A DNA stretch of 64,000 nucleotides, from contig OZ024743.1 of NCBI GenBank assembly GCA_964016885.1, positions 300,762,001 to 300,826,000 of the forward strand, in the 5' to 3' direction. The first letter of the stretch is position 1, and every line of letters begins with the position of its first letter. Origin of the DNA: Eledone cirrhosa (Eukaryota). The translations under genes and the position numbers were made by a program. The notes beneath the pieces were generated by a model. It did not search any database, had not been told where the DNA came from, and was given only the letters and a program-made list of their open reading frames with translations. Below, one piece after another: positions 5,335 to 59,203 of the stretch.

Positions 5335-6685
5335 GAAGAGAGAAGAAACATTTAGATATAATTAGTAATAAAATGTATCATACCTAAACTGCTCCTAGAT
5401 TCCTCGACTACGTAGTTTCGTGGCATAAAAAAAAACAATACATCATAAAGATATAGAGTCCTTGCGAGGTCTGCCGACTTATCAGGAGGATAACTCATTT
5501 TACTAGTCTCAAGAACGCGTCTACACAACGTGAGAAAGAATTTCAAAAGGTGGAGGGGGAGATAGTCACGCGATATAACGGTCGAGAAACAGAGCTAAGC
5601 CTCTTATAACCCCGAAGAAAATACCACGGAGGCGGAGGGGGTATTTATATCGAAGCCGTAGAAGAGGTGGTGAAGGAGGCGAGAGGTATGAGTAATGGAA
5701 GCTTTCCAGCAGTCCCCACACCTCAAAGATTGCTCGACCAGAGGGAGTTATTAACAATATATTTAGAAACATCCTCTTGATAAGTCGGCAGACCTCGCAA
5801 GGACTCTATATCTTTATGATGTATTGTTTTTGTTTATGCCACGAAACTACGTAGTCGAGGAATCTAGGAGCAGTTTAGGTATGATACATTTTATTACTAA
5901 TTATATCTAAATGTTTCTTCTCTCTTCATAATGTATTTTTAACTCTGATACTGGTTCAGTCTAGTTCAACCGGATTGGTCTGTCCCAGACATTCATTGAG
6001 CAACATCGGTGAAGTTGGCACCCTTAACTCACGGTTGGGCGCGGATGCATTCATGTATATGTGTGTGTCCGCATGTATCTGTGTGTTTCTAAATATATTG
6101 TTAATAACTCCCTCTGGTCGAGCAATCTTTGAGGTGTGGGGACTGCTGGAAAGCTTCCATTACTCATACTTCTCGTCCCCTTCACCACCTCTTCTACGGC
6201 TTCGATATAAATACCCCCTCCGCCTCCGTGGTATTTTCTTCGGGGTTATAAGAGGCTTAGCTCTGTTTCTCGACCGTTATATCGCGTGACTATCTCCCCC
6301 TCCGCCTTTTGGGATTCTTTCTCACGTCGTGTAGACGCGTTCTTGAGACTAGTAAAATGAGGTATCTTCTTGATAAGTCGGTAGACCTCGCAAGGACTCT
6401 ATATCTTTATGATGTATTGTTTTTGTTTATGCAATGAAACTACGTAGTCGAGGAATCTAGGAGCAGTTTAGGTATGATACATTTTATTACTAATTATATC
6501 TAAATGTTTCTTCTCTCTTCATAATGTATTTTTAACTCTGATACTGGTTCAGTCTAGTTCAACCGGATTGGTCTGTCCCAGACATTCATTGAGCAACATC
6601 GGTGAAGTTGGCACCCTTAACTCACGGTTGGGTGCGGATGCATTCATGTATATGTGTGTGTCCGCATGTATCTCTGTGTTTCTAA

Positions 6686-6690
<5 letters not shown>
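5331..6690. mobile_element. ORF-less HHR repeat (family D): about 1.5 direct units of ~593 bp plus an inverted partial unit, in (TA)n
   Basis: 5772-6097 repeats at 6365-6690; 5331-5771 is the reverse complement of ~6081-6523; HHRs at 5401-5490(-), 5772-5861(+), 6365-6454(+). Confidence 0.85.
5772..5861 (+). ncRNA. Type I hammerhead motif, U3-A8 variant with long stem II loop (family D)
   Basis: tcctc-TTGATAA-gtcggca...tgccac-GAAAC-tacgta-GTC^gagga; stem III palindrome ACTACGTAGT. Confidence 0.75.
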
Positions 6691-6720
<30 letters not shown>

Positions 6721-6724
<4 letters not shown>

Positions 6725-7685
6725 GGAAAAGAATGAAACGAAATTCCATTCCTTACTCTTATTACGGCTGGTACTTAAATGTGAGTGTGTATGTATACGT
6801 ACATACTTATATGTATACAGACGTACAGTTATTTATATATATATATATACATAAATGCAGAAATATATATATATATATATGTACGTATGGGTTTACCGAA
6901 CATTTATTATAATATTCGGTTTGTTTGTTTGAAAACAAAAAAAAAAAAAGCCCGAATTATGCCGTACTGTGTTCAGGCAACCATCGTCACCTTTTTGTTC
7001 AACACTGACACAGGCACGATGTACTAGTTCCAAGCTATCGTCAGTATCGTATACCTTTCTGTCAGATGGTTAAACGTCTGAAAGTATATACTTTCCTGAT
7101 GCATATTAACTGCTGAACAGCCTAATTTGCATATCGAGTGAGTTAGTCGGCCGGGCGCACCAAAAACGATAAATGGAAAAGAATGAAACGAAATTTCATT
7201 TATCACTCTTAGTACGGCTGGTACTTAAATGTAAGTATTTATGTATACATACATATATGTATACAAACGTACATTAGAATGTATACATATACCTACATGT
7301 ACATATATATACATGTACGTATGGGTTTACCGAACATTATTATAATGCTCGGTTTGTTTGTACACAAAAAAACAGCCCGAATTATGCCGTACATCGTTCA
7401 GGCAACCATCGTCACCTTTTTGTTCAACACTGACACAGGCACGATGTACTAGTTTCAAGCGTATTAGCTATCGTCAGCATCGTATACCTTTCTGTCAGAT
7501 GGTTGAACGTCTGAAAGTATATACTTTCCTCATGCATATTAACGATTGAGCCGCCTAATTTACATATCGAGTGAGTTAGTCGACCGGGCGCACCGAAAGC
7601 GATAAATGGAAAAGAATGAAACGAAATTTCATTTCTCACTCTTAGTACGGCTGGTACTTACATTTAAGTATGTATGTATACGCAT
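6721..7685 (-). mobile_element. ORF-less tandem HHR repeat (family E), ~435-450 bp units, retrozyme-like
   Basis: aaatggaaaagaatgaaacgaaatt recurs at ~6721, 7171, 7605; one HHR per unit; related copies at 17645-17775 and 58438-59175. Confidence 0.8.
7441..7483 (-). ncRNA. Type I hammerhead motif, intact core (family E)
   Basis: acgatg-CTGACGA-tagc taatac gctt-GAAAC-TA-GTA^catcgt; 6-bp stem I; palindromic stem III ACTAGT; decayed copy 7016-7050. Confidence 0.85.
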
Positions 7686-7741
7686 ATATATATATATATA
7701 TATATATGCGTTTGTGTGTGTGTGTATGTCTGCGGGTATAT

Positions 7742-11450: not shown

Positions 11451-12029
11451 GAGGAGGTTATAGTTCACTTGAAGCATTGTGTAATGAGGTATTAACGTTA
11501 GAATCTGTGTAATAAGGCCAAGACAATGCAGATATGGACATAGAAAAAAGAATGCAATAGTGAGAGATATTGATGAGAATTCGTCTTTCACCTTGAATTT
11601 ATTTAAATGTCCTTAATTTTCGAGATAACTTCGTCGGAGCTACTGACATGTCCGGGGAAAGGTGGAGAGTAGAGGCTTGAGGACCTGGGAGAGAAGCCAG
11701 GAAATTTTGTATAGGGGTCCTTCTATGCTAGAGACGATGGGTCTTATATGCGTCTTAGTGCTATTCTTGGGGTCTTGATGAGGTGGTAGAAAGTGGGCAG
11801 TCTGCTATTTCTAGTGGTGTAGTTGAGTTTAATTTTATTCGGGAGTTGTCTTCTCCTACAGATATCGAACCAAATGGAGTTGGTCTGCTTTTCGATTTGG
11901 GCTGCAGTCATGTCCGGGATCACTGTGTACAGTTCACTGTCGCTTAGGTGTTCGAAGGCTAGGTTATTGTATGTGGCTTGAGAGATGACGCAGAACTCTT
12001 TACCTTTGTCGGATGGTAAGTAAATAAGT

Positions 12030-13324
12030 TCCCCGGACATGTCAGTAGCTCCGACGAGGTTATACGTAGATTACACCAAATCCAGCCAGAACAACTTAAA
12101 CTTAATAAATACGCTTTTAGCCTCGACGTTGTCTCCCTCTACACTACAGTCCCCGCTCACCCAGCTGTCGATTTATTGACGGACTGCGTGGTCGCAGAGA
12201 ACATCCACTGCTACGGCCTCCACCCGACGGACATACACCAACTTTTGTCCTTCACAGTAGACAACACGTACTTCACCTTCCACCACCACACATACAGACA
12301 GACAACAGGATTACCCATGGGATCCAGCCTATCGGGCCTGCTGGCCATCACTTACATGAACCAGCTAGAATGCCGAGCCCTCGACACCTGCCATTCCCAT
12401 GCCTTCTTCACCCGATATGTAGATGACATACTCATCCTTACATCATCCCGTGAAGAGGCAGATAAAATATACACAACATTCTCCAGCATGGACGCCAGTA
12501 TAAAGTTCAGCATAGAACACCCCGATGACCGCGGATCCCTATCCCTGCTGGACTTCCAACTCAGGGTAACAGAGGAAGGCAACATCCACACCTGCTTCTA
12601 TAAAAAATCCGCCAGCAGGGACCTGTTCGTACATTTCAGATCGGCCCTCCCACTCGGTGCCAAGTTCGGATACATAAAGAACGAACTGGCACGTATCAAG
12701 AACAAATGCACCGACGCCAGAGACCGAGACACACACACCACACATTTCCTGGAAGTACTCAAACTGAACGGATACACGACATCCACCACAAACCGTGCCA
12801 GAAAGAACAGAGGACACCACACCCGAGGCACTAACACTTGCTTCCTGAAGCTCCCACACTTCAGTGAAGAAACAACAACAGCCATCCGCAGAGCCATCAG
12901 ACGAGAAGGTCTGGATATTCAACTGGCCCATTCGGGTCCTTCTTTGCGTGGACGGCTAGCTAAGAGACACTCCACCAGACATGACAACTGCTGCAGACTA
13001 GCCAACTGCCCCATCAACGACACAGACCTATGCCACCAGGCTTACGTAGTTTACAGACTAGAGTGTGACAAATGCAACAACTTCTACGTAGGTAGCACCA
13101 CCAGACCACTCCACATAAGAATAAAAGAACACCTCAATACTAACGCTTCCTCATTTAAGAAACACCTAGTTAAATGCAAAAACACTGATAAAAACATAAC
13201 AGTTAGGATAGAAACTAAAGAAAGAAACCTCGGCAATCTTAGAATCAAGGAAGCACTCATTATAGATAGAATACATCCACCAATCAATAATAGACTAGAG
13301 CTCAACACCCAATTTATAACCTGA
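12030..13324 (+). CDS. PLE reverse transcriptase core plus GIY-YIG endonuclease (5'-truncated, open)
   Basis: SLDVVSLYTTVP, QTTGLPMGSSLS, RYVDD, LSLLD, VVYRLECDKCNNFYVGST, RIKEH, KEAL, INNRLE. Confidence 0.92.
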
Positions 13325-18004: not shown

Positions 18005-21000
18005 CCGAATTAGTGTGGTAGAGACGAGTACACATGTTTTTGAGGTGTTTAACTTTGACAATACTCTGATATGCCCAGTTCCTCGTTGGGTTGTTGTTTC
18101 ATTGAGGAACTTGAATCATATGAATTTAAACAAACGAATTTCAGCGTCAAAGGATATCTTCTCTCATTGGTCAGTTGTGAGAACATTCCTCAGTCAAAAG
18201 ACTATAGAAAATCATTCTGTAGTGGTTTTTCTTGATATTGCTAAGTACATCTGACCTCTACTATTGTGTTGGTAGTGGTGTTGATGTTAGAGTCAGCTAA
18301 AGAAAAATGTAAAATGGTACAAGGAATAACGTGGTAGAGGAACCATATAAAATAAGCAAATAAAATGTATGTGTGTTATACCTAATCTCAATGTTATAAA
18401 AATGTGTAAATTCACTCCTCCCATTGGTTAGTTTTGAGAGCATTCCTCAGTCAAAAGTCTATAGAAATTCTTTCTTAGGTGAGATTCCCTGTAATGTTTG
18501 TTTTTGTTATTGTTAAGTACATCTGACCTCTACCCTTAATTTGGTAGTGGTGTTGGTGTCGTGGTCAGCCTAGGTATTGCTGCTGTTGACAATTATAAAT
18601 ATCTGTGTGGATTTCTTCTTCCATCCTGACACCATCTATGGTGGTGGGGGGGGGGGGGGGGCATGTATATGAAGAAATAGAAGGCAATACAATGAAGAAA
18701 ACAGAAAATAAATAATAAGTAGAAAATAAATGAAAAATTAATTAATGAAAAATGAAAAATAGAGACATGAAAAATGAAAATGGAAATTGAAAAATGAAAA
18801 ATTAAATATGAAAATGAAAAGTGGAAAATAGAAGTGAAGATTCAAATAAAATAAAATGAGTGTGTGCTATAACCAATCTCAAGGTCAGAAAGATGTTGGA
18901 TAAAGTGGTAGGAGGAACAAGATGGTAAAAGAATGAAACGAAATAAGATAATTAAATTAACATTTTGTGTGTTATAACCATTCTCAACTTAAGGTGAAGA
19001 AAACAAAACAAATGAAAAATCAAGTTAAATAAAATATGTGGGTGTTATAATGATGTTGGCCAAATTAGAAAGGCTGTGTCAGAATCAATATCTAGGCTAT
19101 CATCGTGTCTGTTCATCCTGGGTGGGTCCCTATGGCTTCAGGTGAGTTCCCAAACTTTGGTGTTGTTACTGCCCATATAGCTTGAGGGAGGTCTGGCCGA
19201 GAGGTGTCTACATATTCTGGAGAAGCCCCTATAGCTTGAGGGGTGTTCACATCTCAGTCTGTTGCTACTGTCCATATAGCTTGAGAAACGTTCCGGCCCA
19301 GAGGTGTCTGCATGTCCCGAAAAAGTCGTTTCTGAGGTTTATCTGGCGGCTTCCACCTCTTTGTATCTCAAGGGTTTCGGTCAGACATAGTTTGCATATG
19401 CCAGATCCCCCTTTATCGGGTTGTACCTTCCTGATTATGGACCAGGCCAGATAGTACGGGGTCCTGTCAAGCTTCAGCTTCCAGATCAGATCGGAAAGAG
19501 CCGTACTTTTCCGTTTGACCTCCTTGTTGAAGGAATGGCAATGGTTATACCAACGGTCTTTAACGCTCGTTGATGTGGCTCCTATGTAGAGATGTTCGGA
19601 GGTGTGGGTTTTAACCCTACATCCGTATATTATGTTCTTCTTAAGGTCTTCATTGCTAAGGGGTCATGTTTCGGGGTTTCTGCAGTTGCAGAGGGTGGTC
19701 GACCTCTCCGTGCCTAGTGTGTGGTTCCCGTTACGTGTTGCATGGTGGTCTTACTCCGGGCACGGTGGGGGTGGGGTATCTCCGCGTATGTTTGAGTTTC
19801 TTGGGTGGGCACTGGGTCCCCCGCCTCCCTCCTTCCACATGGTTCTGCTGGGTGATTATATTGCCATCTTTTGGTTGTGTGTGTTTTTTAAGCCTACGCC
19901 TTTTGATGCTAGCTATGTGTTGGGCCAGATTTCTCGTGGTGGAATACTAGAGCTTCACAGTGTGTCTGTTGAAAATCTTGTGGTATCTATGGTCCCGCGG
20001 GAAGCATTTATCAAGTGCTCCAAAGAATTATCGGGCCAAGCTGTTCTTTAGGGCCGCTGAGTAGGGTGGGTTGTACCACGTGATTTTTCTGCGTCTACTC
20101 CTATATGGGCGGGTTGAGGGTGTCGTGAGTTGTTGGAGAGTTATTGGGTTGGTGGTGGTTCCCGCATTGTTGCTTCCCCTTTGGGTGCTATGCGCTTTGC
20201 TATCTCCACGGCCCGAATCTGTGGAGTAGTCGTTGCCCACGCTGGGAGATCCACTGTGGGGAGGTCCCCCGTTAACCCACCCGCACGTGTCCTGCAGTTG
20301 TCGTCGTCGGGCCCGGGGTGGTTATCATCACCCCTAAGACTGATACTCATATTGGGTTTCATCTCATGGTTATGGGTACTCGTCACCATCGCCCGTGTGG
20401 TGGTGTCAGGCTCATGGTGCTTATTTGTTTCTGTTCTGCCTGTATTGTTAGGGTTCGTCTCCTCCCGGACAACTTGGGTGTGGGTGTCCGTTGAGCCATC
20501 CCCATCCCAGCGTTTCGGACTATATGTTATATTTTGGCCATGTGCCGCCTTATTTAGAGCTGCATTGTAATATTCCGTGTTGTTATCAAAGATTTCCTTA
20601 TTAGCGGACAGGCTGGAGATCCTGTCAGAGACACTCTTCACCACGGCCTTGGTTATGGATCTAGGGTGGTTTGACTTGGCGTTAACATACACAAGTTGTT
20701 ATTTGGTTCCTCTGCCACCTTATTCCTTCTACCACTTTATCATTTTTTTGACCTGATTCTAACATCAACACCACTACCAACATAAAAGTAGAGGTCAGAT
20801 GTACTTAGCAATAACAAGAAAAAACACTACAGATTGCCTTGCCTCAGGATGCATTTCTATAGTCTTTTGAATGAGGTATGTTCTCACAACTGACCAATGA
20901 CAGGAGAAGATGTCCTTTGGCGCTGAAATTCGTTTGGTTAAATTCATATGATTCCAGTTCCTCAATGAAACAACAACCCCCCAGGAACTCGGCATATCAG

Positions 21001-24736: not shown

Positions 24737-26940
24737 TTAAGTTATTTTATAGTGAGAGAATTTAGCTTTTAGTTTGTGGTTGCAGTATAATGATCGTTCA
24801 ATTCTATCGTTAAGTAGTTTGTTTTTGGATTTTAGTATGTAAAATAGCTCAAGGTTACATAACCTGCAGTACTTCAAACCACTCCGATATGCATTTGCGC
24901 TGGAAAGTATATCCCATTTTAAGGTGAACTGTTGGTTGTGTTCACGGAGTTGCCAGGTCTTGTTGGCGAGCGTGGTCACAAAACGGTGATTCTGATGTTT
25001 GATTGAGAATCGATGACGGTACCAGCGAGATTTAAACGATGTGGTGGTAGATCCGATATAATACCATTTCTGGTCGTCCGATTCAACCGTGCATTGGTAA
25101 ACAATGATGGACTTTAGGCATTCATTCTGCAATGGACATCTTTCAGGTAGATGGCAGTTACATGCTTTGTTGTGGGTAGCGGGTATACCATGGATAGGTT
25201 GTGATAGCGGTACAGGTGGGTTGAGCAATACCCGTCTCCCATTTAGTGGTTGGGAGGCAGATATTGCGTTCTGCCCATCTGTTACTAAAATGTTTTGTTT
25301 TGTAGAGTTGTTTAATTGCCTTAAGTTAAGTTTGTTTATGTATGCTTCAAGGTTTGGTGCCGTGGAGTATGATAGTCTAATAGTTTTGGAGTTCAGAATT
25401 TTGCTGTACTTATGGGAACTAGGGAAGTGTTTATTGATTAATTTAAAGAATGAAAGAGATAGTTTTGTACTAATCGAGGCATTAAAAATAGAATTATACC
25501 AGATATACTTTCTACAACGTGATTTATTTGGTGGTGATCTTCTATTATTAGTATGTCTGGTAGTATAGTGTGTGTGTGCTTGTGTTTTAGTCCCCCGGTT
25601 ACGTATACCTTGATTACGTGTAGAGCTATGTGTGTTGTGGAAATTACTATCGATGTATTCTATTGTATCCCGGTGGTCAGCATTCCTTAATGCATTATTG
25701 TAGTATTCAGCATGTTCGCTAAAAATATCAGAGTTAGACGATAGGCGAGAGATTCTAAGAGAAATACTCCGGGGAACTGATTTGATCATGGAGAGTGGGT
25801 GGTTAGAGTTAAAGTCAATACACGTAAGGTTCTCATTTACCTTGTGGAAGGGTCGTATCTGTCCGGTATTTAAATTAAGAGTTACGTCCAGAAAGTTTAC
25901 TACCTTAAGATTGTATTCGTATTTTATTTTTAGGCCCAGTTCACTAAAAGATTTTCTAATATTTTTCCGTAGCCTTTCAAGATTTTGGTTATTCAAGTTA
26001 TTAACTAATAAGAGTCCGTCATCTCTATATATCCCCCCCTGTAGATTACTAAATCTACTACGTAATATGTGGGCTATGTAAATTCACACGAGATCCGTGA
26101 CCTCCGCCGAGTCGTTGGAACCCATGGTAATATCGAAATTTGTGGGTCTGTCCTTACGTTCCCAGTAGCAGTTATCGAACTTAATAATGGTTTTTCTAGC
26201 CTCGAGAATAATATTAATTTCGTCCTCCGTTAGGTCGGAATTGGCCTTAGCAAACGATAGGGCCTTACGTAAAGTGCTTGGTGAGATGGAAGAGTAGTAT
26301 TCGTCTATGTCAAATTGTATAAACTTAGATTTTTTCTTATTCTTAACATTATTAAACCAGCGAATTGCTTCGCTAGTGTTGCCCCATAATTTAATTTCAA
26401 TTTTCTTTTTCACTTGAGTTATTACTCTGTCAAGTATATGTTTACTAATTTTCCCTATGTCTGATTTAGAAGGGCATATAAGTCTAATCTTAGGGTTAGA
26501 GTCAACATTTACCTTATGGTCCTTCAGGTTGAAGGAGGGGGTAGCGGGTATAATCGGCTCAGTTCTATCGTCTATCTTGAGATTCTTTACCACTTTGTAT
26601 GCCTCGTTGTTAATATTTGCTAGCGTAGTTTCATTTGTTTTTCTATATTTTTTGTGTAGTTCGTTGCGTATGAAGTTATTATACGTATCGATATCCATGG
26701 TATACACGTTAGAAGTCTTGTCAGCTTTCACAACAATTCCATTGGTATTTTGCAATCTTCGGAGTAGTGCTTTCATGTTGTTCTGCAGCTCATTATTTCT
26801 ATGTCTGTTGAACTTAATGTTCATGGTAGTTTTCAATAAGTCCTGTTCGAAAGCTTCGAGGTGAGGGTTTGTAGGTGGGTTTTTACATGATTTAAAACCA
26901 TATGATTCAGACGAGTGATTGGCGCGTCCTTTATCGAAGT
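24737..26940 (-). pseudogene. PLE RT plus GIY-YIG ORF, 5'-truncated, one in-frame stop (26084-26086)
   Basis: VKADKTSN, QFDIDEYY, MGSNDSAEVTDLV*IY, IYRDDGL, VNFLDVTL, SNHP, IVYQC..YYIGST, RWYRH, CRLCNLE; the two listed ORFs share one frame. Confidence 0.92.
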
Positions 26941-27906
26941 GTACCGCTATCACAACCTATCCATGGTATACCCGCTACCCACAACAAAGCATGTAACTGC
27001 CATCTACCTGAAAGATGTCCATTGCAGAATGAATGCCTAAAGTCCAACATTGTTTACCAATGCACGGTTGAATCGGACGACCAGAAATGGTATTATATCG
27101 GATCTACCACCACATCGTTTAAATCTCGCTGGTACCGTCATCGATTCTCAATCAAACATCAGAATCACCGTTTTGTGACCACGCTCGCCAACAAGACCTG
27201 GCAACTCCGTGAACACAACCAACAGTTCACCTTAAAATGGGATATACTTTCCAGCGCAAATGCATATCGGAGTGGTTTGAAGTACTGCAGGTTATGTAAC
27301 CTTGAGCTATTTTACATACTAAAATCCAAAAACAAACTACTTAACGATAGAATTGAACGATCATTATACTGCAACCACAAACTAAAAGCTAAATTCTCTC
27401 ACTATAAAATAACTTAACATTCGAACCCGTAACTACAACACCACTTTCTAGCTAACAACCTTCTCTTCTCCCCCACACTACAAGACAATACACTGCTTAT
27501 CACTATACATGGTAACTCAGTACAATTCCTAGATTACTACTACAAAACCAAAAGTTCACTCACCACATATACTTTATCTGTCCCCTCTCTACCTATATAT
27601 CTCTCTCTACATCCATTACACTCTCTCTCACCTTTGACCTACCTCCCTCTCAACATCTATGAACTTGACCTCTGGGGCAATAAATAATTCCGACCTCAAC
27701 TATCTACGCATCTCTCCAAAAGTAACTAATAAAACCCCTACCATAACATTTTGATTAAGATATCTACAAGCCACTCTCTCCTACTTCTCCAACCCCTGCA
27801 TATCTTTCCTTCTCTCTCCATCTTCCCTACTTTTCTCTCTTCCTGTTCCACTCTATCTTCCCCAACAACCCCACTTAAGGGTTTTTACATTGTATATTTA
27901 CCATTC

Positions 27907-35705: not shown

Positions 35706-35743
35706 CGAGCTGAGGATCCGCTAAGGTGAAACAATTGTTCTCG
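35706..35743 (+). ncRNA. Compact type I hammerhead motif (family J)
   Basis: cgag-CTGAGGA-tcc gctaa ggt-GAAAC-aatt-GTT^ctcg; palindromic stem III ACAATTGT. Confidence 0.75.
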
Positions 35744-35999: not shown

Positions 36000-36202
36000 T
36001 ATATGTATAAATATTTCGTATCTCCAAAGAAATACTGTTTTAGGAAGCCGTAGCTATGCAAGTACAGGGGCGCTAACGCCCTCTGGTGATGTCCAGCAGA
36101 AGCAAGGGGGACAAACCGTCTATGCATTTCAGGCTTAACTGGCCTTCGTCGGGACGGCCCCTCCCACCGCTTGCGAATGCTGGATTAGATGACAGGCGAG
36201 AA

Positions 36203-36253
36203 TATATACTTTTCTCGTCTGTGTAATTGAGGTGATTAATCTCATTTGCATAT
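36203..36253 (-). promoter_or_regulatory. Candidate octamer plus TATA promoter upstream of HHR
   Basis: Minus strand ATATGCAAATGAG (octamer 36244-36251), then about 35 nt later AAAGTATATA (TATATA 36203-36208); same layout in family E. Confidence 0.45.
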
Positions 36254-36438
36254 GAAGCTGCATAAGTTGGCTGAACGTATAATAAAAAAGAAATAGGATT
36301 TCGCTACAAGCATAGCTTTATACAATATGTATAAATATTTCGTATCTCCAAAGAAATACCGTTTTAGCAAGCCGTGGCTATGCAAACACTTGGGGGCTAA
36401 CGCCCTCTGGTGATGTCCAGCAGTAGCAAGGGGGACAA

Positions 36439-36480
36439 CCATCTATGCATTTCAGGCTTAGAAGGCCTTCGTCAGGACGG
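36439..36480 (-). ncRNA. Type I hammerhead motif, intact core (family K)
   Basis: ccgtc-CTGACGA-aggc cttctaa gcct-GAAA-tgca-TA^gatgg; palindromic stem III ATGCAT; sister copy has CCGACGA. Confidence 0.88.
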
Positions 36481-36769
36481 TCCCCCCCCCCCCGCTTGCG
36501 ACTGCTGAACTAGAAGACAGGCGAGAATATATACTTTTCTCGTCTTTGTAAATGAGGTGATTAATCTCATTTTCATATGAAGCTGCATAAGTTGGCTCAA
36601 CTTATAATAAAAAAGAAATACGATTTCGCTCCAAGCATAGCTTTATACAATATGTATAAATAGTTCGTATCTCCAAAGAAATACGGTTTTAGGAAGTCGT
36701 ATCTCTGCAAACACCGGGGGGCTAAAGCCCTCTGCTGATGCCCAGCAGAAGCAAGGAGGACAACCTCAT

Positions 36770-39142: not shown

Positions 39143-41038
39143 ATGTTAAACGCAGCGAACGAAAATAGTGGTGGGGGGACAGCGGTAAGAGTTGTAAGCT
39201 CGCACGCTTTAGTCCCCCCTTCCTTCCCAACTAACGTCATAGAGAAGGAAGGAAAAATTAAAATAAAAACAGACGAATCTGCGGAGAAAAAAAATGACGA
39301 AAACACAAATCTGGACATGGATTCCAACAACGAAAAAAAAAAAATTTGAAAAATTGCATGACAATACTAATAACACAAACAAAGACACAACAAACACAAA
39401 AATAACATTTGAAAATAACACCATAACAGAAAGCAAAGCAGACGACAAGATTTCATTTGCACAGAAAACAAAGAAATCTTTGACTTATATAGCGGAAAAT
39501 ATTTCAGATGTGGCACGAAGGATCACAGACGCCAAACAATACATAAGTGAAGGAGAGAATGGTATTTTATCGGTAAAAATGCCTCAAGAATTCACCAAAG
39601 ACATTGAAAGCCGAACGGTCAAGTTTCGGACCATCAACAACAGTACAAAACAACCTGAACAGCCTTCTCAAGCAGATATCAAAACAGTACTCACAGAAGT
39701 ACTTAATGAAACCACTTTCATAAGAAAAGACAGATTGTATGGAAGCCTAGCAATTATCATGAAGAACGAATCCGCGGCAAAAAAATGTGCTTTGTCACCG
39801 ATTCGTTCGAATAATTTCACCTTTTATCCATCTTATATGGGGAAAAGAACTCAACGCATATGGCTGGATGCAATGATGCCAGATGTGGACTACTGCTGGC
39901 TCATAGCTGGCTTCATCGATCCAGTCAATGACAACGTGATTTCCATTGGGAAAACCACAGGCAATGCGTTCAGTGCAACAGGTATAGAGCTGGTAGTGCA
40001 AATGAAGCCTGAACGCATCGCCCAAATACCCGACAGAATCCTATTAGAGGACCACGGGTATATAAACATTAGCGTGGAGGGGAGAAGGCCGTCTTGCCAT
40101 ATCTGTGCAGGCAGAGGGCACCTGAAGGCCTCTTGTCCCCAACTCAACAAAAAGAAAACCCTGCTACCAACACCAGCTCCACCACCACCACCACAACAGA
40201 TAAACAAACAACAAAACTCAGTCCCACCCAACCCGTCCCTCAGTAAAACCACAACACCACCACAACACAAACAGTCACAACACATAACCCCAAAACAAAA
40301 TACAGGCCCACCCAACCTCTCAATAAAACAACACAACCACCGCAGACACAACACAAAACACAGTCTAACATAGTGACATCCATCTCCCCCACAAAGAAAA
40401 CCAACACGGAAACATTAGCAGCAAACATACCTCTTCCCTCCAACACTGAAGATAACCCAACGAATTCGGAGGAAGAACGGAGTCCTTCAGACAGATTAAA
40501 AGGAAAAAAAGAAAACATGTGCAAAACACACAAGGCCAAACAATCCCCACCCAAATCTCAACACAATCCAACAAAACAGGAAACACCCCTCCAGCAACAA
40601 ACAAAACCAAACCTGCCCCTCCCCTCTTCGAAACACTCACACCATCCGAAAAAAAGAAAATTACACTATACTTACATCAACAGAAACAATAATAAATTAA
40701 ATGGACTCATATACAATAATCCTTCGGTACAAACCGAAGGTGTAAACTTTGTTTCGTCAGAAAACTACCCACATTTAAAATTAATAAAGATCCCAATGAA
40801 CCTCTACCAAAGACTAAACAAGGATTTTAAGGAGGACGTAGGACCACCCTCTGTCAAACCCATAAACCGCGTCCTACTAAAAAGCTTTCCCCCTCCCCTT
40901 CCCCTCCCCAACACAACTCCAAACACCCCAACCCCACCACACACTGACGACCCCACACAACCACAAGACACCCCTTCACCCAACACCCCCGACCCCATGG
41001 AAGTCGTGCAATCCGAACCCCGGGAAGCGGAAAGGTAG
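39143..41038 (+). pseudogene. LINE ORF1 (gag-like, CCHC knuckle), frameshift in A-run near 39340 and stop at 40371
   Basis: VEGRRPSCHICAGRGHLKASCP followed by a long P/T/Q-rich tail. Confidence 0.8.
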
Positions 41039-41071
41039 GTCTCTACACTCTCCTTTGGCTCTGCCGCCCAC

Positions 41072-44000
41072 ATGGATGTGTTAAGAGTAGGATGTTTGAA
41101 TGCACGTGGCCTGGGCTCAACTTGGAAGCAAGCAAAGCTTCTAAATGACCTCAGGTCATGTAGTATAAATGTAATGGTTATCTGTGAGACTCGAATCAGC
41201 GTCGTGCGGCAGCTGGCCCCCACCTTCGATGACTTTGAGGTGATTGCATCTCTCTGTTAACCTGGAGGTGGGGGTGGGGTTGTCGTACTGCTGCAAAAAC
41301 ACCTGGGTCTTGCCGTACAGGTTGTGCACTCGGACCCGGAGGGTCGTTTGTTGGTGCTAGACGTTGGCAGTAGTGAAAGTACGGCCTTGAGACTGGTCGC
41401 CGTCTAATTCCCTTTCGGAGCTGAACGGTCCGACTTCTTCCAGCGTTTGGAGACTTTTCTTGGAACGTCGCGTTCCCTGCTTCTAGCGGGGGATTGGAAT
41501 GACATCCTGGATGCACGTTGGGACTATGCAGGAGCATGTCCTAATAGAGGGGGGGGGGTAACAGCCTGAAGGGGTGACTCGACCGTTTTAACTTGGTCGA
41601 TAGATATCGACTAGATTTTCCAACTGTGCCTACCTGGACTTGGAGAAACCACAGTGGTCAATCTAGATCGTACTTAGATAGATTCTTAGTTAGAAGTAAG
41701 GATAGGGACATATTAAGCTGTCCAGAAATGCGCACGGTTGGCTACACGGATCACAAATTAGTGACCTGCGTGGTCAATATCGAGAAAACACATAATCAGG
41801 GTCCCGTTTACTGGAAACTTAATTTGTCTTTACCGGCAAACGAGACTTACAGAAACCGGATTAGCAGATTAGTTAAGGAGAGGTTGACGGGTACAATCGT
41901 CAACAACCGATGGTGGGCATCTCTCAAAAGAGAGATTAGAACAGAATCAATAAGTTATAGCAAGACGTTAGCTGCCGATAGGAATAGAAACGAGAAAGAA
42001 TTAACAGGTAAATTAGAAGAGGCAATCAAGAGCGAAGATGTGGCCAGAGTACTGACATCGAGGACGGCCTTGAACCAGTTTTTCGATGCAAAGCACGAAG
42101 GCTGCGTCATTCGAAGTAAAATACGTGCTCTAGGTAATGAGGGGGCCAAAGCCGTTGGATGGGCCCGCGTGACAGAAGCTAAGAGTGGAAATCGATCCAC
42201 CATCCGGTCGTTGCAAGACGAAGATGGACGGGTGATCCGGGAGCCTAAGAAGATGTGCGAGGCCTTTCAAAGGCACTTTGCCCGATTGTTCGGGGGAGGC
42301 GAGGGTCCGGGCGGGGGCGTGGATTTCGGTCCATACCTCGACGGCCTGCCGCATCTCTCGAGCGAAGAGGCAGAGTCCTGCGAGGGACCAATCTCGGCTG
42401 ATGAGATCGGAGATGCGCTGAGCCAATGCAGCAGACGCAAATCTCCAGGTCTCGATGGTATACCTTACGAACTTTATTTAGCAATGCCGGTCTTCTTCTC
42501 CGAACTCCTCGAAGCGGTCTACTGCAATTGGCAGCAGAACGGGAGAATTCCTTGTACTGTAGCAAAGGGCGTAGTCACGCTGGTGAGGAAGGACGAGAAC
42601 AAGGGGGATAGTATAAATAATTTTCGGCCCATAACCCTGCTAAACACAGAGTTAAAGATTTTGGCCAAGGTGTTAGCAAAGAGGTTGGCGCTTGTCGTGG
42701 GTGGCCTGGTGGGAGATGCGCAGACATGTGCTATCCCATCCAGGTCCATTCACGATAACCTCCACCTCATGCGATACATCATAGAGAGGGTTGGCAACAA
42801 ACCCGGCTTCGGTGGGGCCCTGATCAACTTGGATCAGTCTAAGGCCTTCGATGGGGTCGACCATGGTTACCTGGATGCAGTGCTAGCGGTGGCTGGGTTC
42901 GGTCCTGTTTTCAGAGGCTGGATAACTGCCTTACATAGCAACCACATCTGTTCTAGGATCAAGGTGAACGGCTACCTTTCGAAGCCGTTCGAAATCACAC
43001 GATCCATTCGACAGGGGTGCCCTCTCTCCTCCCTTCTGTACGTATTGACTCTCGAGCCTTTACTGAGGAAGTTGGAGTTGTTGCAGGGTATCCCCCTGGA
43101 ACCAGGATTGAGCAAAGCGGTGTCGGCCTACGCCGATGACGTAACAGTAATGGTATCGACCGACTCGGAGATCGAGGCGATCGGTACCTTACTGGAGTAG
43201 TACGAAAGGTTGTCAGGAGCGAAACTGAACCGGGAAAAATCCATCGGGCTGCAACTCGGAACGTGGAGAGGCAGACCGATGCCTCCTGACGGTGTCGTCG
43301 GACACTGGACGGAGGGCCCGGTAAAGTTGCTTGGGGTCTGGTTTGGACCGGACCGCCAGGTGGAAAAGAACTGGAACGAGGTTACGAACAAGGTGGTTGC
43401 ACTAACCCAGAAATGGGCCAAGTGTAAGCTGTCCCTAAAAGGCCGGGCGGAGGTGGCGAACATTTGCATAGCGTCCGTCACTTACTACCGCCTGACTGTC
43501 GTGCCTTGCCCTAAGGAAACACTCACCACCATGGAACGCATGCTCTTCCAATTTCTTTGGAAGAAGCGCCCTCCTATGGTGAGAAGATCCATCTGCTGCC
43601 AACAACCTTCGAAATGAGGGCTGGGGATGCCGTGGTTGATGATGCGTAGGCACGCATTAAGGCTACGGCACGTACAGGTATTCCTCACTGGTCAACCGGT
43701 GTGGGCTCCGTTCGTGAAAAGAGCCTTTCCGAGACTCGTCTCGCTCACCGAGCTACAGTCCTGGGTCAAGCAAAGATCCGGAAAACTGGGAGACTGGCAC
43801 ACTGAGTGTGCTCAGGCGCTCAGGGCTCTCTGGCAAGCGGGACAGGCCATCGGTGGAGAATCCACCTCATCATTCTATAGAGGGCTGGTGGCTAGCTGGG
43901 GCGATGACACCCTTGGAGAGTCGCTGGACATGGAAGAAGACGAACTGGCCAGCCTGTTCGGTAGGACTTTCGGCCCAGGACCAACGGACAACTTCCAGAA

Positions 44001-44511
44001 GTCACTGGCCTGGCAGTGCTACCGGGGGGCTCTACCCGTTCGAGATAGGCTCTACAGACACGGGCGCCCGGGCAGGGATCCCTCAAAAAAGATTTGCCCT
44101 AGATGCGTGCGTCACGAAGAAACCGTTGCGCACGCATTGGTGCAATGTCCGGGCGTGGCTGATCTGTGGGGCTACGCCGAACGACTGCTGTCGCGGGTGG
44201 CGCCGATTAAATTGACCGCCGAGTCCGTGATGACAATCAAACCGCCTCCCCTCTTCACAAAGGAAGCAAAGGCGGTTTTTCTGTGCGTAATAGCCATGTT
44301 GAAAGAGTTTGTTTGGTGGACACGATTGAAAGGTCTGAGGTCAGGCAACTTCCTCTCTGGCCATAGTCTGGTCTACTTCTTCCGATATCACTTCGGAAGA
44401 AGGATAAGAATGGAGAGAGAGGTGCTTGGCCACAGGCAGTTTTATGAAAGGTGGGTGATAGTGGCGAGAATGGCTCGTGTAAATGGGTCTTCTCTGTATA
44501 TCATCCTGTAG
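41072..44511 (+). pseudogene. LINE ORF2 (AP endonuclease, RT, C-terminal zinc finger), disrupted
   Basis: CLNARGL, ICETR, LAGDWN, SYLDRF, TDHK, KSPGLDG, FRPITLLN, LDQSKAFD, IRQGCPLS, AYADD, CPRC..ETVAHALVQC; stops at 41258, ~41405, 43198, 43615 and a frameshift near the G-run at ~41530. Confidence 0.92.
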
Positions 44512-45749: not shown

Positions 45750-47043
45750 TACTTCTAGGCGCCTGAAAGGTAGATCACAAGTGAACTTGTACGCGATAAT
45801 AATTCTGAGTCCCGAGAAAAATATATACTAATGCTAACTCTAAAAGATCTAAAACAAGCTACATGAAAGTTCGTACGAAGTAAAGGTAGAAAACGGAAAA
45901 ATAAATTCAGAATCCAACCCGCCCAAAAGAAAAGCGAGGAAAGAAATACTGAAACGAAAGAATAAGGCATAAGTGCCACTAAGAAATATAGAGGGCACAG
46001 AGAATAGTGGGAGCGGTCGGAAAAAGGGGACAAGTATCCGGGGTCTAAACCAACTGCTATAAAGGGCGGAGTCCGCCAAATCTATCATAGACTAGGGGAG
46101 GGGGTGGGGGTCCTAAGGCTACAAGGGGCCAAAGGGCAGCCTCGGGTGGGCGAGAAAAGACGCCGACAAAGGAGAAGAGCTGGGGTAGAAGGACTAAGGA
46201 GAGAGGGGGGAAGGAAATAAAGGAAGCGATAAAAGAATACAAAGAAGATCTTACGTCTCCCTTGGCAAGCAGGGGTTACCCATTGCAAAATCGGCAAGTG
46301 GGGTGTTATAGCCCTAGTCTACCCCCGCCCCGGGTCATTATGGGGTTTGAGGGCGAGGTAAGTCCTACGCAATCTATGTTTACATGCAGTAACCAGTTCA
46401 TCTTTCTTGTTTAGGAGTTGGTCCGTCGAAAACAGCATTAGTAAAGTTTCCTCCGAGCATAAATTGCACGGACGGCGTCCTCCCGTGTAAGAATTGGCTC
46501 TGGACAGTAATCTCCAAGTGAGATCATAGGTGATGTTGTTGTCCTTGAGGTCCCATATGCGGCCCGAAAGTGTAGTGGCGTGACGCCGGGCCGGGTTTCG
46601 GAAGGTATGTCTATGTTGGTATAGCCGGGTCTTGAAGTCACATGCGGTAAGTCCTATATAGGCTATGTTGGAGATATCCGTCCTCACGTTGCACTGGTAG
46701 ATCACATTACGGTCTCTGCATCTATTGTCGAGTGGGCAAATAGATCTATCCGGGCAGTTACACCTCCTGGTCGGTTCTCCACTGCTATTTAGGTTATTTC
46801 TGCCATCGGGGTTGAGTTTTTTGTTGTTAGAGGAGACGATGTTTTGTGCGAAGTTTGGTGTAGTGCTGTAAGAGAGTTTGATGGTATTTTTGTTAATTAT
46901 GTTGTGGTAGCGGTGTTGTAATGGAAAGTGTTATTCAATGAGCCTAAATAATAGTTTCCCGATGGGAGTTGTCACCTCTGCGTTGTGGGGAGGATTGAAC
47001 CATGTTACAATGCGTGAGCGGCGGTGTCTCCTGCTGGTTCCGC
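45750..47043 (-). mobile_element. 5'-truncated PLE (linker, GIY-YIG, tail)
   Basis: VTWFNPPH...IKLSYST, CNC..CP..CR, VIYQCNV..AYIGLT..RLYQH..CNLCSEE..LLNKKDE (ORF ends 46319). Confidence 0.88.
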
Positions 47044-49734: not shown

Positions 49735-52700
49735 AACCAAGAACTAAAAAACAATACGGACATAATAATTAAGGAAGCGGACAAGGGATGTACTGTTGTC
49801 ATTATGGATGCTGAAAAATATAAAATTTCTATGTTCTCTCTCTTACAAAATACTAATTAATATGAAAGAGTAAAAAACTAAAAAACTAACAGCAATCAAA
49901 AACAATGACCAGATTAAACACACTGATTTGTCGATACCAGTAAGACTTAACTAAAAAGGAACGCGATCATTTAACACATGTTGAATACAAAACCAGCAAC
50001 CTTTACGGGCTTCCGAAGATCCACACGTGTAAAATAATTAACGATGCATGTAAACAATCCACCTCACCCTGTGTGAACACACAATACCCCACAGACCTTA
50101 AATTAAGACCAATTGTATCGGGCCCACAATGTGAAACACACAGACTGAGCAACTTTATAGACATCCTACTAAAACTAATTCTCAAACAAATACCAAACCT
50201 TGTAAGAGACGATCTGGACCTCTTAAACCACCTCCCCAAACATGTCAACGACGACACTGTTATTGTGTCTTTCGATGTAGTGAATCTCTATACGACGATC
50301 CCACACCAATACGGACTAGAAGCAATAGGATTCTGGCTAGAGAAATATCCCAATGAGATACCTGGCAGAATAGAAAAAAGCTTCATCACCGAGGGATTAA
50401 AATTCATCTAACAGAACAACTTTTGTATTTCGATGGCAGTACTTTCAAGCAAATATCGGGGACTGTGATGAATACAAAATCCGCTCCGACTTATGCCAAC
50501 TTAGTCATAGCATACTTAGAAGTCCAGATATATGAAAAGTCCAAATCAAAATACGGATTGAACTTCCACAAATAGTTACCAGAGAATTCGAAACGCTACT
50601 TGGATGATTGTCTCATTCTTTGGTCCAGCATACGCGACCAACTGAATGCTTTCAAAAACGTAATAAACGGCATCAATAACCACATCCAATTCACAATGGA
50701 ATACAACCAAGATCAACTCCCATTTCTGGACATCTTAATCTTAAAAACAGACACAAATATTGAAACTGACATACACTACAAACCAACAGATTCCAAGCAA
50801 TACCTGCTATTCACCTCCAACCATCCAAAGCACAAGAAGACAAACATTCCTTTTAACCTAGCAAGAAGAATTTGCACAATTGTCTACAATTATGAAACGC
50901 GAAATAAAAGACTTCAAGAATTAAAGGAAATTCTACTCGAAAGAGAATACCCACCATTACTAATAAATAATGGAATAGAAAGGGCTAAAGCAATAGGCAT
51001 TGATGAATTATGAAAGCAGAAACAAATTCAAGGTACGTCCAATATTCTATCTTATATCTCAACACACAACCCAAGAAATGCGGAAGCTTACAACACTATT
51101 CACAAGAACATCCCACTACTAAAACAAGACCCAATAATGAAAAAAGACCTTGAAACACACAAAGTAATCAAAAGCAAAAGACAACCGAAATCACTGAAAC
51201 CATTACTCACCAATGCCAAATTACCTACCACAAAACCACAACCAACTGTCAAAAAATGTGGTCGCTCTAATTGTGGAAGCTGCACTCACCTCATTGAAGG
51301 CAACACGTATACATTTAAATCAGGACAACATTTTGCTGTAAAAAATCACTTCACATGCTCATCATAAAATCTGCTTTATGCCATTAAATGTAAAGGATGC
51401 AATGAAGTTGATATACGTCAAACTAAACTCACACTCATAAACAGAATAACAGTTCATCGAGAACAATTACGAGATCCAACCACGAGACATATACCACTAA
51501 GCGCACATCTAGACATATGCGCAAGTAATAAGACACCCAAATTCCAAGTCTTCCCATTTTACCTTTGCGCTAACAATACAACAGAACAAATACGAATAAA
51601 TAAGGAAAATATGTTTATTCAACAATATAGACCAGCATTAAATATGGTGTCAACACCATAACATGCTAACCATCCAAAATGACACATACACACACACACA
51701 TAACACCTGCTACTTTAGAAAATAAAAACCCGAACTAAATAAACCTTAACATACGTTTGCGCTGACAATACAACAGAACAGATACGAATAAGTAAGGAAA
51801 ATATGTTCATTCAAAAATATTCCTACTAAAGGAATCATTTTCCTACACACACACACACAACATAGATATATATTCTCTTCATCTTAACATGCAAACCATA
51901 CGCCCACACACACATAAACCTATACATACACATAACAAATCACACACAACTCCCTCCTCATTTCTTCTAATAGATTCACTTTCCTACACACATATATAGA
52001 CACACACACAATATATATATTCTCTCCATCTTAACATACCCCCCCCCACACACACATAACACACATATACACACACACATAACTTCCTCCCCCATTTCTA
52101 CTAATAGAATCATCATCCAATACAACCCACACACACACACAAGCACAGAAATAAACATACATATCTTTACTTTCAATACAAAATCTGAATTCTGACACCC
52201 CAGCTATCTAACCATATTCACTGAACCAGAATAATTCTCCCATCCCATTTCTCTTGACCATTATCTTTTGCTTGTCATAAAATTCTCTAAGAAGGCTACA
52301 GAATCGATTTCAAAATAAGGGCACGAAATTTAATGAAAACTTGTTCACGTGACATCCATAATTTCATTTATAACCAATCAAATTACGTTTATTAAAAAAA
52401 AGCCTTCGTGAGCCCCCTTTTTTTAAGTAAAAAGAAATTCAGACACTCATATATGAAAAAACAACCTGAGCCCCTATGTTTGTGAAGAACTTTGTAACGC
52501 AAACTGGCGCGAAATTTATTATAATTATTGACCAACTAATCAAATTACTTCTCTAAAAACCTGGCCTTTTGAGCCACTTTTGTCAATATAAAACAAGTAA
52601 CATTCAAAGACCAACCAGTTGTAAGAAAAACCACAGACCCTCCATCTCAACTCTACTTTTGAAAAGCAGAAGAACTGCGAAACCGGTAACGGAACCCAAT

Positions 52701-57620: not shown

Positions 57621-58437
<817 letters not shown>

Positions 58438-58438
<1 letters not shown>

Positions 58439-59175
58439 AATGGAATAGAATGAAACGAAATTTAATTTCTCACTCTCAGGTCGGCACTTACTTAAATGTA
58501 AGTATGTATGTATACGTACATACATATATGTATACAGACGTACAGTAGCATGTATATATATACATACAGGCACACATATATATATGCACGTATCAGTTTA
58601 CCGAACATTTATTATAATGCTCGGTTTGTTCATTTGTAATATATATATGTGTGTCTGTATATATATATATATATACATGCTACTGTACGTCTAATTACAT
58701 ATATGTATGTACGTATACATACATACTTACATTTAAGTAAGTGCCGTACTAAGAGTGAGAAATGAAATTTCGTTTCATTCCATTCCATTTATCGTTTTCG
58801 GTGCGCCTGTCCGACTGAACTCACTCGATATGCAAATTAGGCTGCTCCGCCGTTAATTTTCATAAGGAAAGTATATACTTTCGGACGTTCAACCATCTGG
58901 CAGAAAGGTATACGGTGCTGACGATAGCTAATAAGCTTGAAACTAGTACATCATTCCTGTGTCAGTGTTGAACAAAAAGGTGACGTGGTTGCCTAAACAC
59001 TGTACGGCGTAATTCAGGCTGTTTGTTTGTTTACAAACGAACAAACCGAGCATTATAATAAATGTTCGGTAAACGGATACGTGCATATATATATGTGTGC
59101 ATGTATGTATATATATACATGCTACTGTACGTCTGTATACATATATGTATGTACGTATACATACATACTTACATT
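58438..59175 (+). mobile_element. Family E HHR element with inverted partial copy (58438-58640)
   Basis: Reverse complement of the 6.7-7.7 kb repeat; HHR 58914-58952 ggtg-CTGACGA-tagctaataagctt-GAAACTAGTA^catc. Confidence 0.85.
58828..58877 (+). promoter_or_regulatory. Candidate octamer plus TATA promoter upstream of HHR
   Basis: ATATGCAAATTAG (octamer 58830-58837), AAAGTATATA (TATATA 58872-58877), HHR from 58914. Confidence 0.45.
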
Positions 59176-59203
59176 TATATATATTTATATATATTTCTTC
59201 CAT

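Follow-up and report, generated by a model that had tools for sequence, protein, structure and literature searches.

Two families of tandem repeats in one stretch of octopus DNA carry the same motifs, an octamer, a TATA box and a hammerhead ribozyme, in the same order and orientation, and this raises the question of what the shared cassette is and where it came from. The stretch, hereafter the window, comprises 64,000 nucleotides of Eledone cirrhosa (contig OZ024743.1, positions 300,762,001 to 300,826,000), and it was analysed as a whole. An earlier note on this DNA had read the cassette as a compact promoter just upstream of the ribozyme, present in two unrelated repeats (here families K and E), and had proposed it as an undescribed system.

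The cassette in families K and E

Families K and E consist of non-coding units (323-325 bp in K, 425-492 bp in E) that are dispersed through the genome as 1-7-mers, with thousands of candidates. Each unit contains a type I hammerhead, identified by descriptor and folds, whose loop 3 is short and palindromic (TGCA or CTAG), and stems I and II show compensatory changes across families. Judged from these sequence features, K and E are almost certainly non-LTR retrozymes. An Rfam scan of the window returned 147 matches, nearly all to microsatellite-driven miRNA models, with no hammerhead at E values up to 1. The family K array has a period of 325 with 90% matches in the window (TRF), and the best 41 places matched in the genome are 91-100% identical to it (40 of 2,055 candidates scored). 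Its features are as follows.

36001..36765, minus strand: family K retrozyme insertion, 2.4 tandem copies of a unit of about 325 bp, with the 3' end at a (TA)n tract
36566..36577, minus strand: 12-nt box of the upstream copy, with one substitution, TATGAAAATGAG
36528..36533, minus strand: TATA box of the upstream copy
36438..36481, minus strand: upstream type I hammerhead with intact core and palindromic loop TGCA (descriptor scan and fold), predicted cleavage after 36444
36284..36289, minus strand: T6 run past the hammerhead and ahead of the next box, predicted Pol III terminator
36241..36252, minus strand: exact 12-nt box of the downstream copy, TATGCAAATGAG
36203..36208, minus strand: TATA box of the downstream copy, with the octamer 35 nt before it and a predicted start at 36178 (TATA+30)
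36115..36158, minus strand: downstream type I hammerhead, core at 36152 with the variant CCGACGA for CTGACGA, predicted cleavage after 36121

Family E occurs as two insertions.

58640..59177, plus strand: family E retrozyme arm, identified by BLAST against a natural E unit and containing one hammerhead, predicted start at 58902
58436..58593, minus strand: second, 5'-truncated E arm in inverted orientation, meeting the main arm head-to-head in a Penelope-style insertion
58829..58840, plus strand: exact box, TATGCAAATTAG
58872..58877, plus strand: TATA box within a 16-bp palindrome, with the octamer 34 nt before it
58912..58954, plus strand: type I hammerhead with palindromic loop CTAG and U-U at the stem II base (descriptor and fold), core at 58918, predicted cleavage after 58948
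6719..7700, minus strand: second E insertion, about 2.2 copies
7566-7555, minus strand: variant box in the first copy of the second insertion, with an intact hammerhead core at 7477
7133-7122, minus strand: exact box in the other copy, with a TATA box at 7090-7085 and a degraded hammerhead core at 7044

The motifs lie where they had been placed: in K, the octamer ATGCAAAT at 36251-36244 and TATATA at 36208-36203 (minus strand), with the hammerhead core at 36152; in E, the octamer at 58830-58837 and TATATA at 58872-58877 (plus strand), with a second octamer at 7132-7125 (minus strand). Sister units with one-base octamer variants were likewise found in K (ATGAAAAT at 36576-36569) and E (ATGTAAAT at 7565-7558), as were palindromes around the TATA box in both families. 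Three of the 11 exact octamers in the window are cassette octamers of K or E. The window copies are decayed, and no insertion there combines an exact upstream box with two intact hammerheads; in the hammerhead that follows the octamer at 7132, stem II has a 7-nt deletion and GAAA is replaced by GGAA. Source arrays are likely to lie elsewhere in the genome, for example at locus L330, where seven near-identical tandem E units occur, the first four of them 99.8-100% identical.

Three further hammerhead families, which lack the box, were observed in the window at 35710 (plus), 38638 (plus) and 60487 (minus); they recur in the genome census described below, often as inverted pairs. The second E insertion is adjoined by a tandem duplication of about 590 bp at 5885-6700, with two frames beginning YILLLIISK.

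The box of host small-RNA genes

The octamer is part of a 12-nt box, TATGCWAATKAG. Of 30 host U6 loci, 22 have this box at -76 to -80 together with a TATA box at about -30; six of the remainder have a SINE-like insertion at this place and two simply lack the box. It is also present in the MRP gene (1 of 1), in both tRNA-Sec loci examined and, as TATGGAAATTAG, in the best U6atac locus (the other seven of eight are without it). RNase P has no box, and none is found at that position in 25 U1, 25 U2, 15 U5, 6 U3 and 1 U12 loci. The U1, U2, U5 and U12 genes share YCAG at -55 to -58, AATTA near -90 and a TATA-like box at -30. The split of such genes into Pol III and Pol II classes is established knowledge. 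The downstream K box, TATGCAAATGAG, is identical to the boxes of one host U6 gene and the MRP gene, and the E box, TATGCAAATTAG, to those of one host U6 gene and both tRNA-Sec genes. The claim of an snRNA-type promoter site is borne out by this identity. The accompanying analogy with histone H2B is not: among the host small-RNA genes, which the comparison covered, the match is to the U6-type upstream box.

TATA-like boxes at -30 are seen throughout the host Pol II snRNA genes (U1, U2, U5, U12 and U3; L126-L175, L370-L384, L386-L392); vertebrate Pol II snRNA genes are not known to have such boxes. One tandem U6 array (C19, L063-L090) has units of about 1.8 kb and a variant U6 5' sequence, and in 6 of the 26 loci examined a SINE-like insertion replaces the box just upstream of the TATA box. 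As a by-product, the comparison gives the architecture of the host U6 and U1 promoters, which is useful for guide-RNA and circular-RNA expression tools.

Abundance and conservation of the cassette

The host genome is 3.0 Gb in size and rich in microsatellites. The pattern octamer-N30-40-TATATA-N25-55-CTGANGA has 25,348 matches genome-wide versus 9 for the reversed pattern, and a stricter version with the 12-nt box has 18,423 versus 0 for the control. Among copies picked by BLAST and not by motif, the exact octamer is present in 35 of 44 K and 34 of 37 E copies, and an indel between the octamer and the TATA box in 3 of 44 and 0 of 37, respectively. The order of the motifs and the fixed octamer-TATA spacing (35 in K, 34 in E) are upheld by the family consensus. 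The consensus retains all elements, the opposite of the missing octamer or TATA box and the variable spacing that the earlier note had named in advance as evidence against its proposal.

A motif-blind census of 80 evenly chosen 10-kb stretches (800 kb in total) yielded 45 hammerheads, with 0 in the reversed sequence. The box, at one mismatch or fewer, accompanies 16 of the 45, from 8 stretches and families E, E-sub, W and Y; the same match occurs at 33 of 20,000 random positions. Four more hammerheads are from related families and have lost the upstream part, and the other 25, without the box, represent different families or chance. The cassette marks about one third of the hammerheads, not all of them.

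Across K, E, W and Y, the box is identical at 11-12 of 12 positions, and the ungapped flanks at 5-12 of 30 and 4-11 of 25. This evidence is limited to these four families. The box pattern itself had led to K2, K3, X, X2, Z2, M2 and M3, and the octamer pattern to Z and M, and pattern-found families were left out as non-independent. Within families, the suggestion that the cassette is more conserved than its neighbouring bases holds for E by mismatch rate and fails for K. In 48 motif-blind E copies, mismatches amount to 1.2% in the box and 1.0% in the TATA box versus 2.9-8.0% in other regions; subfamily-variable columns (0 of 22 versus 22 of 187, p=0.075) do not differ significantly. In K, conservation of the box (0.958) shows no excess over the flanks (0.944-0.979). 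AT-rich, CpG-free motifs mutate slowly anyway.

A 226-nt contig of low depth and uncertain origin, from a second organism, matches window positions 58828-59057 and spans the box, TATA box and hammerhead; none of its 10 differences is listed in the box or the TATA box. Contigs of unknown kind from three sequencing runs cover the elements at uneven depth, greater over the hammerhead in one run (X4); this was given no weight as a sign of expression, since contigs yield neither start sites nor transcript levels. A pattern scan of metagenomes gave 21 matches, none with a hammerhead fold. Two metagenome contigs (L399 and L401) contain the same 12-nt box followed by a TATA box, again with no hammerhead fold, and possibly represent a small-RNA gene of the host animal.

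Relations among the families

As had been stated, direct comparison of K with E gives no alignment beyond the motifs (z no higher than 1.2 with the window E copy and 3.1 with one E subfamily), but the two are probably not unrelated. Similarity outside the motifs runs from K to E through the intermediates K3 and X, with z values of 14-17 for K-K3 upstream, 7.3-7.9 upstream and 3.6-5.9 in the leader for K3-X, and 8-16 for X-E, and the families of this chain are colinear from box to ribozyme. The bridging families came from the box-pattern search. K and E are probably distant relatives by common descent, which is the simpler reading.

Family M (L187:1500-1800, L235-L264) has no alignment link to K or E. 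It is old (76-82% identity to the query copy), with a unit of about 330 bp, and has spread as 1.4-mers. Its box-TATA spacing is 39, the spacing of U6, and its predicted start, T|G, is also as in U6. The 30-copy consensus contains an extended hammerhead with T6 directly after it, and the stretch between predicted start and T-run has almost exactly the length of one ribozyme. Family M possibly makes a short Pol III ribozyme RNA.

Insertion pattern and Penelope-like elements

The published work cited in this and the following sections is represented by excerpts, and statements about it apply to those. The 3' ends of K and E copies are fixed at 25-92 nt before the box and joined to (TA)n, with none at the cleavage site. 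In K they fall at unit positions 252 (17 of 63 arms) and 299 (11), and in E at 397 (39 of 108 arms) and 340 (13). The 5' ends are scattered, and most arms comprise 1-1.5 units. Head-to-head inverted arms are found at 24 of 39 K loci and 20 of 82 E loci. Fixed 3' ends with inverted 5'-truncated arms constitute the insertion pattern of Penelope elements (PMC8557442). Ends away from the cleavage site would fit a circular or multimeric template. 5' truncation points near the predicted start form a weak signal in K, where 5 of 68 fall at 74-77 amid generally elevated counts, and no peak is present there in E (1 of 124). A peak of E 5' ends at 241-247 was rejected as a start signal, as it reflects an alignment break at an internal TA repeat.

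Of 200 arms, four abut one Penelope-like family (three of 132 in E, one of 68 in K), with no intervening microsatellite at two of the E junctions. This family shows a weak Pfam match to reverse transcriptase (RT; E=0.012) and, by eye, a GIY-YIG-like motif. The junction at L308, with a 5-nt microhomology, suggests a template switch. Since the abutting family is common and has the same (TA)n target, the junctions are only a lead to a helper. Direct junctions of E with one Penelope-like family are located at L308:5050-5060, L348:8367-8390 and L347:6000-10000; at L347, the E unit lies between inverted arms that are 99.5% identical. Unlike Penelope pseudo-LTRs, E and K units do not form the 3' end of an RT-GIY-YIG reading frame, and no autonomous element ending in E or K was found among the loci examined, where a Penelope-like match on the same strand precedes none of 89 E copies and one of 41 K copies, at a distance of 1.3 kb.

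The window contains Penelope-like fragments at 12020-13324 (with Pfam RT and GIY-YIG matches), 19265-20698, 24737-27417 (with an inverted duplication), 46319-46930 and 49944-51013. A LINE-like element at 39267-44511 has an ORF1-like frame and a stop-broken RT frame (Pfam RVT_1, E=4.6e-22).

A candidate internal promoter

The reading that we favour, with a probability of about 0.6, is that K and E are retrozymes that carry the U6-type box of their host and a TATA box as an internal snRNA-type promoter, likely read by Pol II. That the cassette works as a promoter is very probable in itself, although we infer its activity. In a dimer or longer array, transcription would start about 30 nt past the TATA box, 16-26 nt before the ribozyme core, and run through the next unit. 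The two hammerheads, probably dimerised via their palindromic loops, would cut and free a unit-length RNA that holds the next promoter. The box and TATA box do lie within the cleavage-to-cleavage monomer, in agreement with the earlier proposal that such a unit contains the next cassette, and this monomer is predicted to fold as a compact circle. Cleavage and circularisation of the transcript are steps that we infer; a Penelope-like reverse transcriptase would then copy the unit RNA, always from the same start, and the copies would be inserted as 1-2.5 units into (TA)n. Monomers would be dead ends, and the sources would be arrays with two intact hammerheads.

The same elements could serve the RNA. 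In one alternative, which we consider unlikely, a captured U6-type promoter is now kept as an RNA hairpin or a docking site for reverse transcriptase in the circle, and transcription is host read-through, as a review proposes for retrozymes (PMC7761336). Consistent with such a role, E, E-sub and W have an inverted copy of the box farther downstream, with which the box pairs at 11 of 12 bases, the sequence upstream of the predicted start pairs with sequence past the ribozyme, and all 3' ends fall just before the box. However, the box itself is fixed while its pairing partner varies by 1-6 mismatches, which points to a factor that reads sequence, and the TATA box and its distance are fixed too. 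Moreover, the 3' region of the abutting Penelope-like family has no sense-strand box near its ribozyme.

If the cassette is a promoter, it is quite probably read by Pol II. All 7 box-bearing Pol III promoter types examined in the host have an octamer-TATA spacing of 38-40, and the spacing in K (35) and E (34) is 4-5 nt below this, half a helical turn. K and E thus have the host box and TATA box of a type-3 Pol III promoter, and the host spacing is found in M only. Their products are also not free of internal T-runs. All 27 complete E units have a run of T4 or longer before the next box, as do 25 of 29 K copies; the run is T6 or longer in 18 of the E units and 17 of the K copies. At such runs Pol III would terminate without reaching the next promoter and ribozyme; together with the shorter spacing, they therefore favour Pol II.

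The details of the cassette resemble Pol II snRNA genes in part. Five bases past the box, a YCA lies 27 nt (K) or 26 nt (E) before the TATA box; the YCAG-TATA distance is 25-27 in U1, U2, U5 and U12, and 32 in RNase P. The predicted +1 is the A of GC|AG in K and E, and U1 starts GC|A. In a scan with a U1/U2/U5 matrix, absolute scores are low, and the YCAG site takes first place in 8 of 13 representatives with short spacing, which are related to one another. Its rank is 15 in K, 5 in the window E copy and 69 in W, and it is not first in K3 or Z either. No AATTA near -90 is apparent in K or E. Against Pol II, the box is Pol III-specific in the host, the hybrid that Pol II would require is present in no examined host gene, and in E, W and others the box forms one arm of an RNA hairpin in which TCAG is partly paired. 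In insects, the polymerase choice of snRNA genes is set by the sequence of the proximal element and a conserved spacing (PMC1761439).

About as unlikely as the hairpin, or slightly more so, is a type-3 Pol III promoter that tolerates the spacing of K and E and would give mostly short hammerhead RNAs ending at T-runs, with rare read-through to unit-length circles. The box occurs only at host Pol III-type genes, 9 of 27 E units have only T4, and the schistosome hammerhead satellite is cited as a Pol III transcript (PMC2220036). Family M, with its spacing of 39, predicted G start and T6 just past the ribozyme, also points this way; M has spread nonetheless, so spacing and T-runs are no clean predictor of the polymerase. 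Set against these points are the spacing of 38-40 in every box-bearing host type, half a helical turn more than in K and E, and the T6 or longer runs before the next hammerhead in most E units and K copies.

An internal promoter read by Pol II could be extended to a fuller history, which as a whole is rather doubtful. A retrozyme superfamily would have captured a U6-type promoter, shortened it by half a helical turn and thereby switched from Pol III to Pol II, so that transcription passes the T-runs and carries the next promoter into the circle. M would keep the older Pol III geometry, and one Penelope-like family would supply the reverse transcriptase, leaving template-switch junctions.

It is very unlikely that the cassette is an mRNA-type octamer and TATA promoter for Pol II that arose independently in unrelated repeats, as the earlier note implied. 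Octamer and TATA Pol II promoters occur in histone H2B and immunoglobulin genes, the octamer here is exact, direct alignment of K with E fails, and M cannot be aligned to either. Nevertheless, the match reaches 12 nt and is the U6/MRP/tRNA-Sec box among the host small-RNA genes compared, and K and E are linked by intermediates (K3-X, z 7.3-7.9 upstream; X-E, z 8-16). Chance occurrence of AT-rich motifs in two repeats is effectively refuted: copy number alone inflates counts and TATATA is very common in the genome, but the 12-nt box stands at a fixed place in at least four families that were found box-blind or were already in the window, and the same box is present in host genes.

Comparison with known systems

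K and E correspond at the sequence level to the definition of metazoan non-LTR retrozymes (PMC7229834). In agreement with the excerpts of that study, they are short, tandem, non-coding, low-GC repeats with one type I hammerhead per unit and a palindromic loop 3, and they coexist with Penelope-like elements; the U-U at the stem II base of one family here also occurs in axolotl HHR_Amex2 (PMC7229834). The E units, at 430-490 bp, are slightly above the 170-400 nt of metazoan retrozymes, for which the excerpts describe no promoter (PMC7229834). The box may already be visible in the published mussel and axolotl units (supplement of PMC7229834). Retrozymes seem promoter-less according to the excerpts of a 2020 review, which assumes that transcription in animals is by read-through (PMC7761336), and a Penelope helper has been argued from co-occurrence and phylogeny. 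A 2026 preprint describes animal retrozymes as non-autonomous Penelope derivatives that arose from pseudo-LTRs, with promoters unmentioned in its excerpts (bioRxiv 10.64898/2026.07.22.740005). K and E resemble Penelope-like pseudo-LTRs in their partial tandems, inverted 5'-truncated copies, (TA)n targeting and type I hammerhead (PMC8557442, bioRxiv 10.64898/2026.07.22.740005).

Against this background, the genome offers a mutable promoter candidate with about 25,000 copies, several families and a predicted start site. Its two natural spacing classes provide test material for polymerase choice, and the genomic junctions name a candidate helper. The host type-3 Pol III promoters (U6, U6atac, MRP and tRNA-Sec) share the 12-nt box and the TATA box at -30 with K and E, and differ in spacing (38-40 versus 34-35), with M keeping 39.

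Other hammerhead retroelements have promoters of their own, as proposed here for K and E. The Schistosoma satellite Sm-alpha is said to use gene-internal Pol III boxes. Its promoter is cited as a Pol III promoter (Ferbeyre 1998, cited in PMC2220036). In the plant LTR retrozyme NbRZ1, a promoter has been mapped in the LTR and the hammerhead is of type III, in both respects unlike K and E (PMC12029980). Beyond the newt and schistosome citations, a literature search of partial coverage found nothing on an octamer-TATA-hammerhead cassette or on animal-retrozyme promoters, and the cassette is absent from the excerpts of PMC6155905, PMC6962438, PMC10886601 and PMC11722881.

The closest parallel is satellite 2 of the newt, a hammerhead tandem repeat with an snRNA promoter read by Pol II (Coats, Zhang and Epstein 1994, cited in PMC2220036). 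K and E are likewise hammerhead tandem repeats, with an internal snRNA-type promoter that is predicted here. The newt promoter reportedly combines an octamer with a PSE and starts transcription about 47 nt ahead of the cut. The predicted distance from start to cleavage site is likewise 47 nt in E, and it is 58 nt in K. Unlike the newt repeat, K and E have a host Pol III-gene box directly upstream of the TATA box, and they belong to many families with two spacing classes and dispersed 1-7-mers. If our reading is true, the newt result is extended to an invertebrate. With K and E as non-LTR retrozymes, and an snRNA promoter for Pol II reported in a newt hammerhead satellite (PMC2220036), the cassette is not the undescribed system that had been proposed but a large, testable variant of self-promoting hammerhead retroelements, in which a U6-type box likely lets ribozyme repeats transcribe themselves much as newt satellite 2 does.
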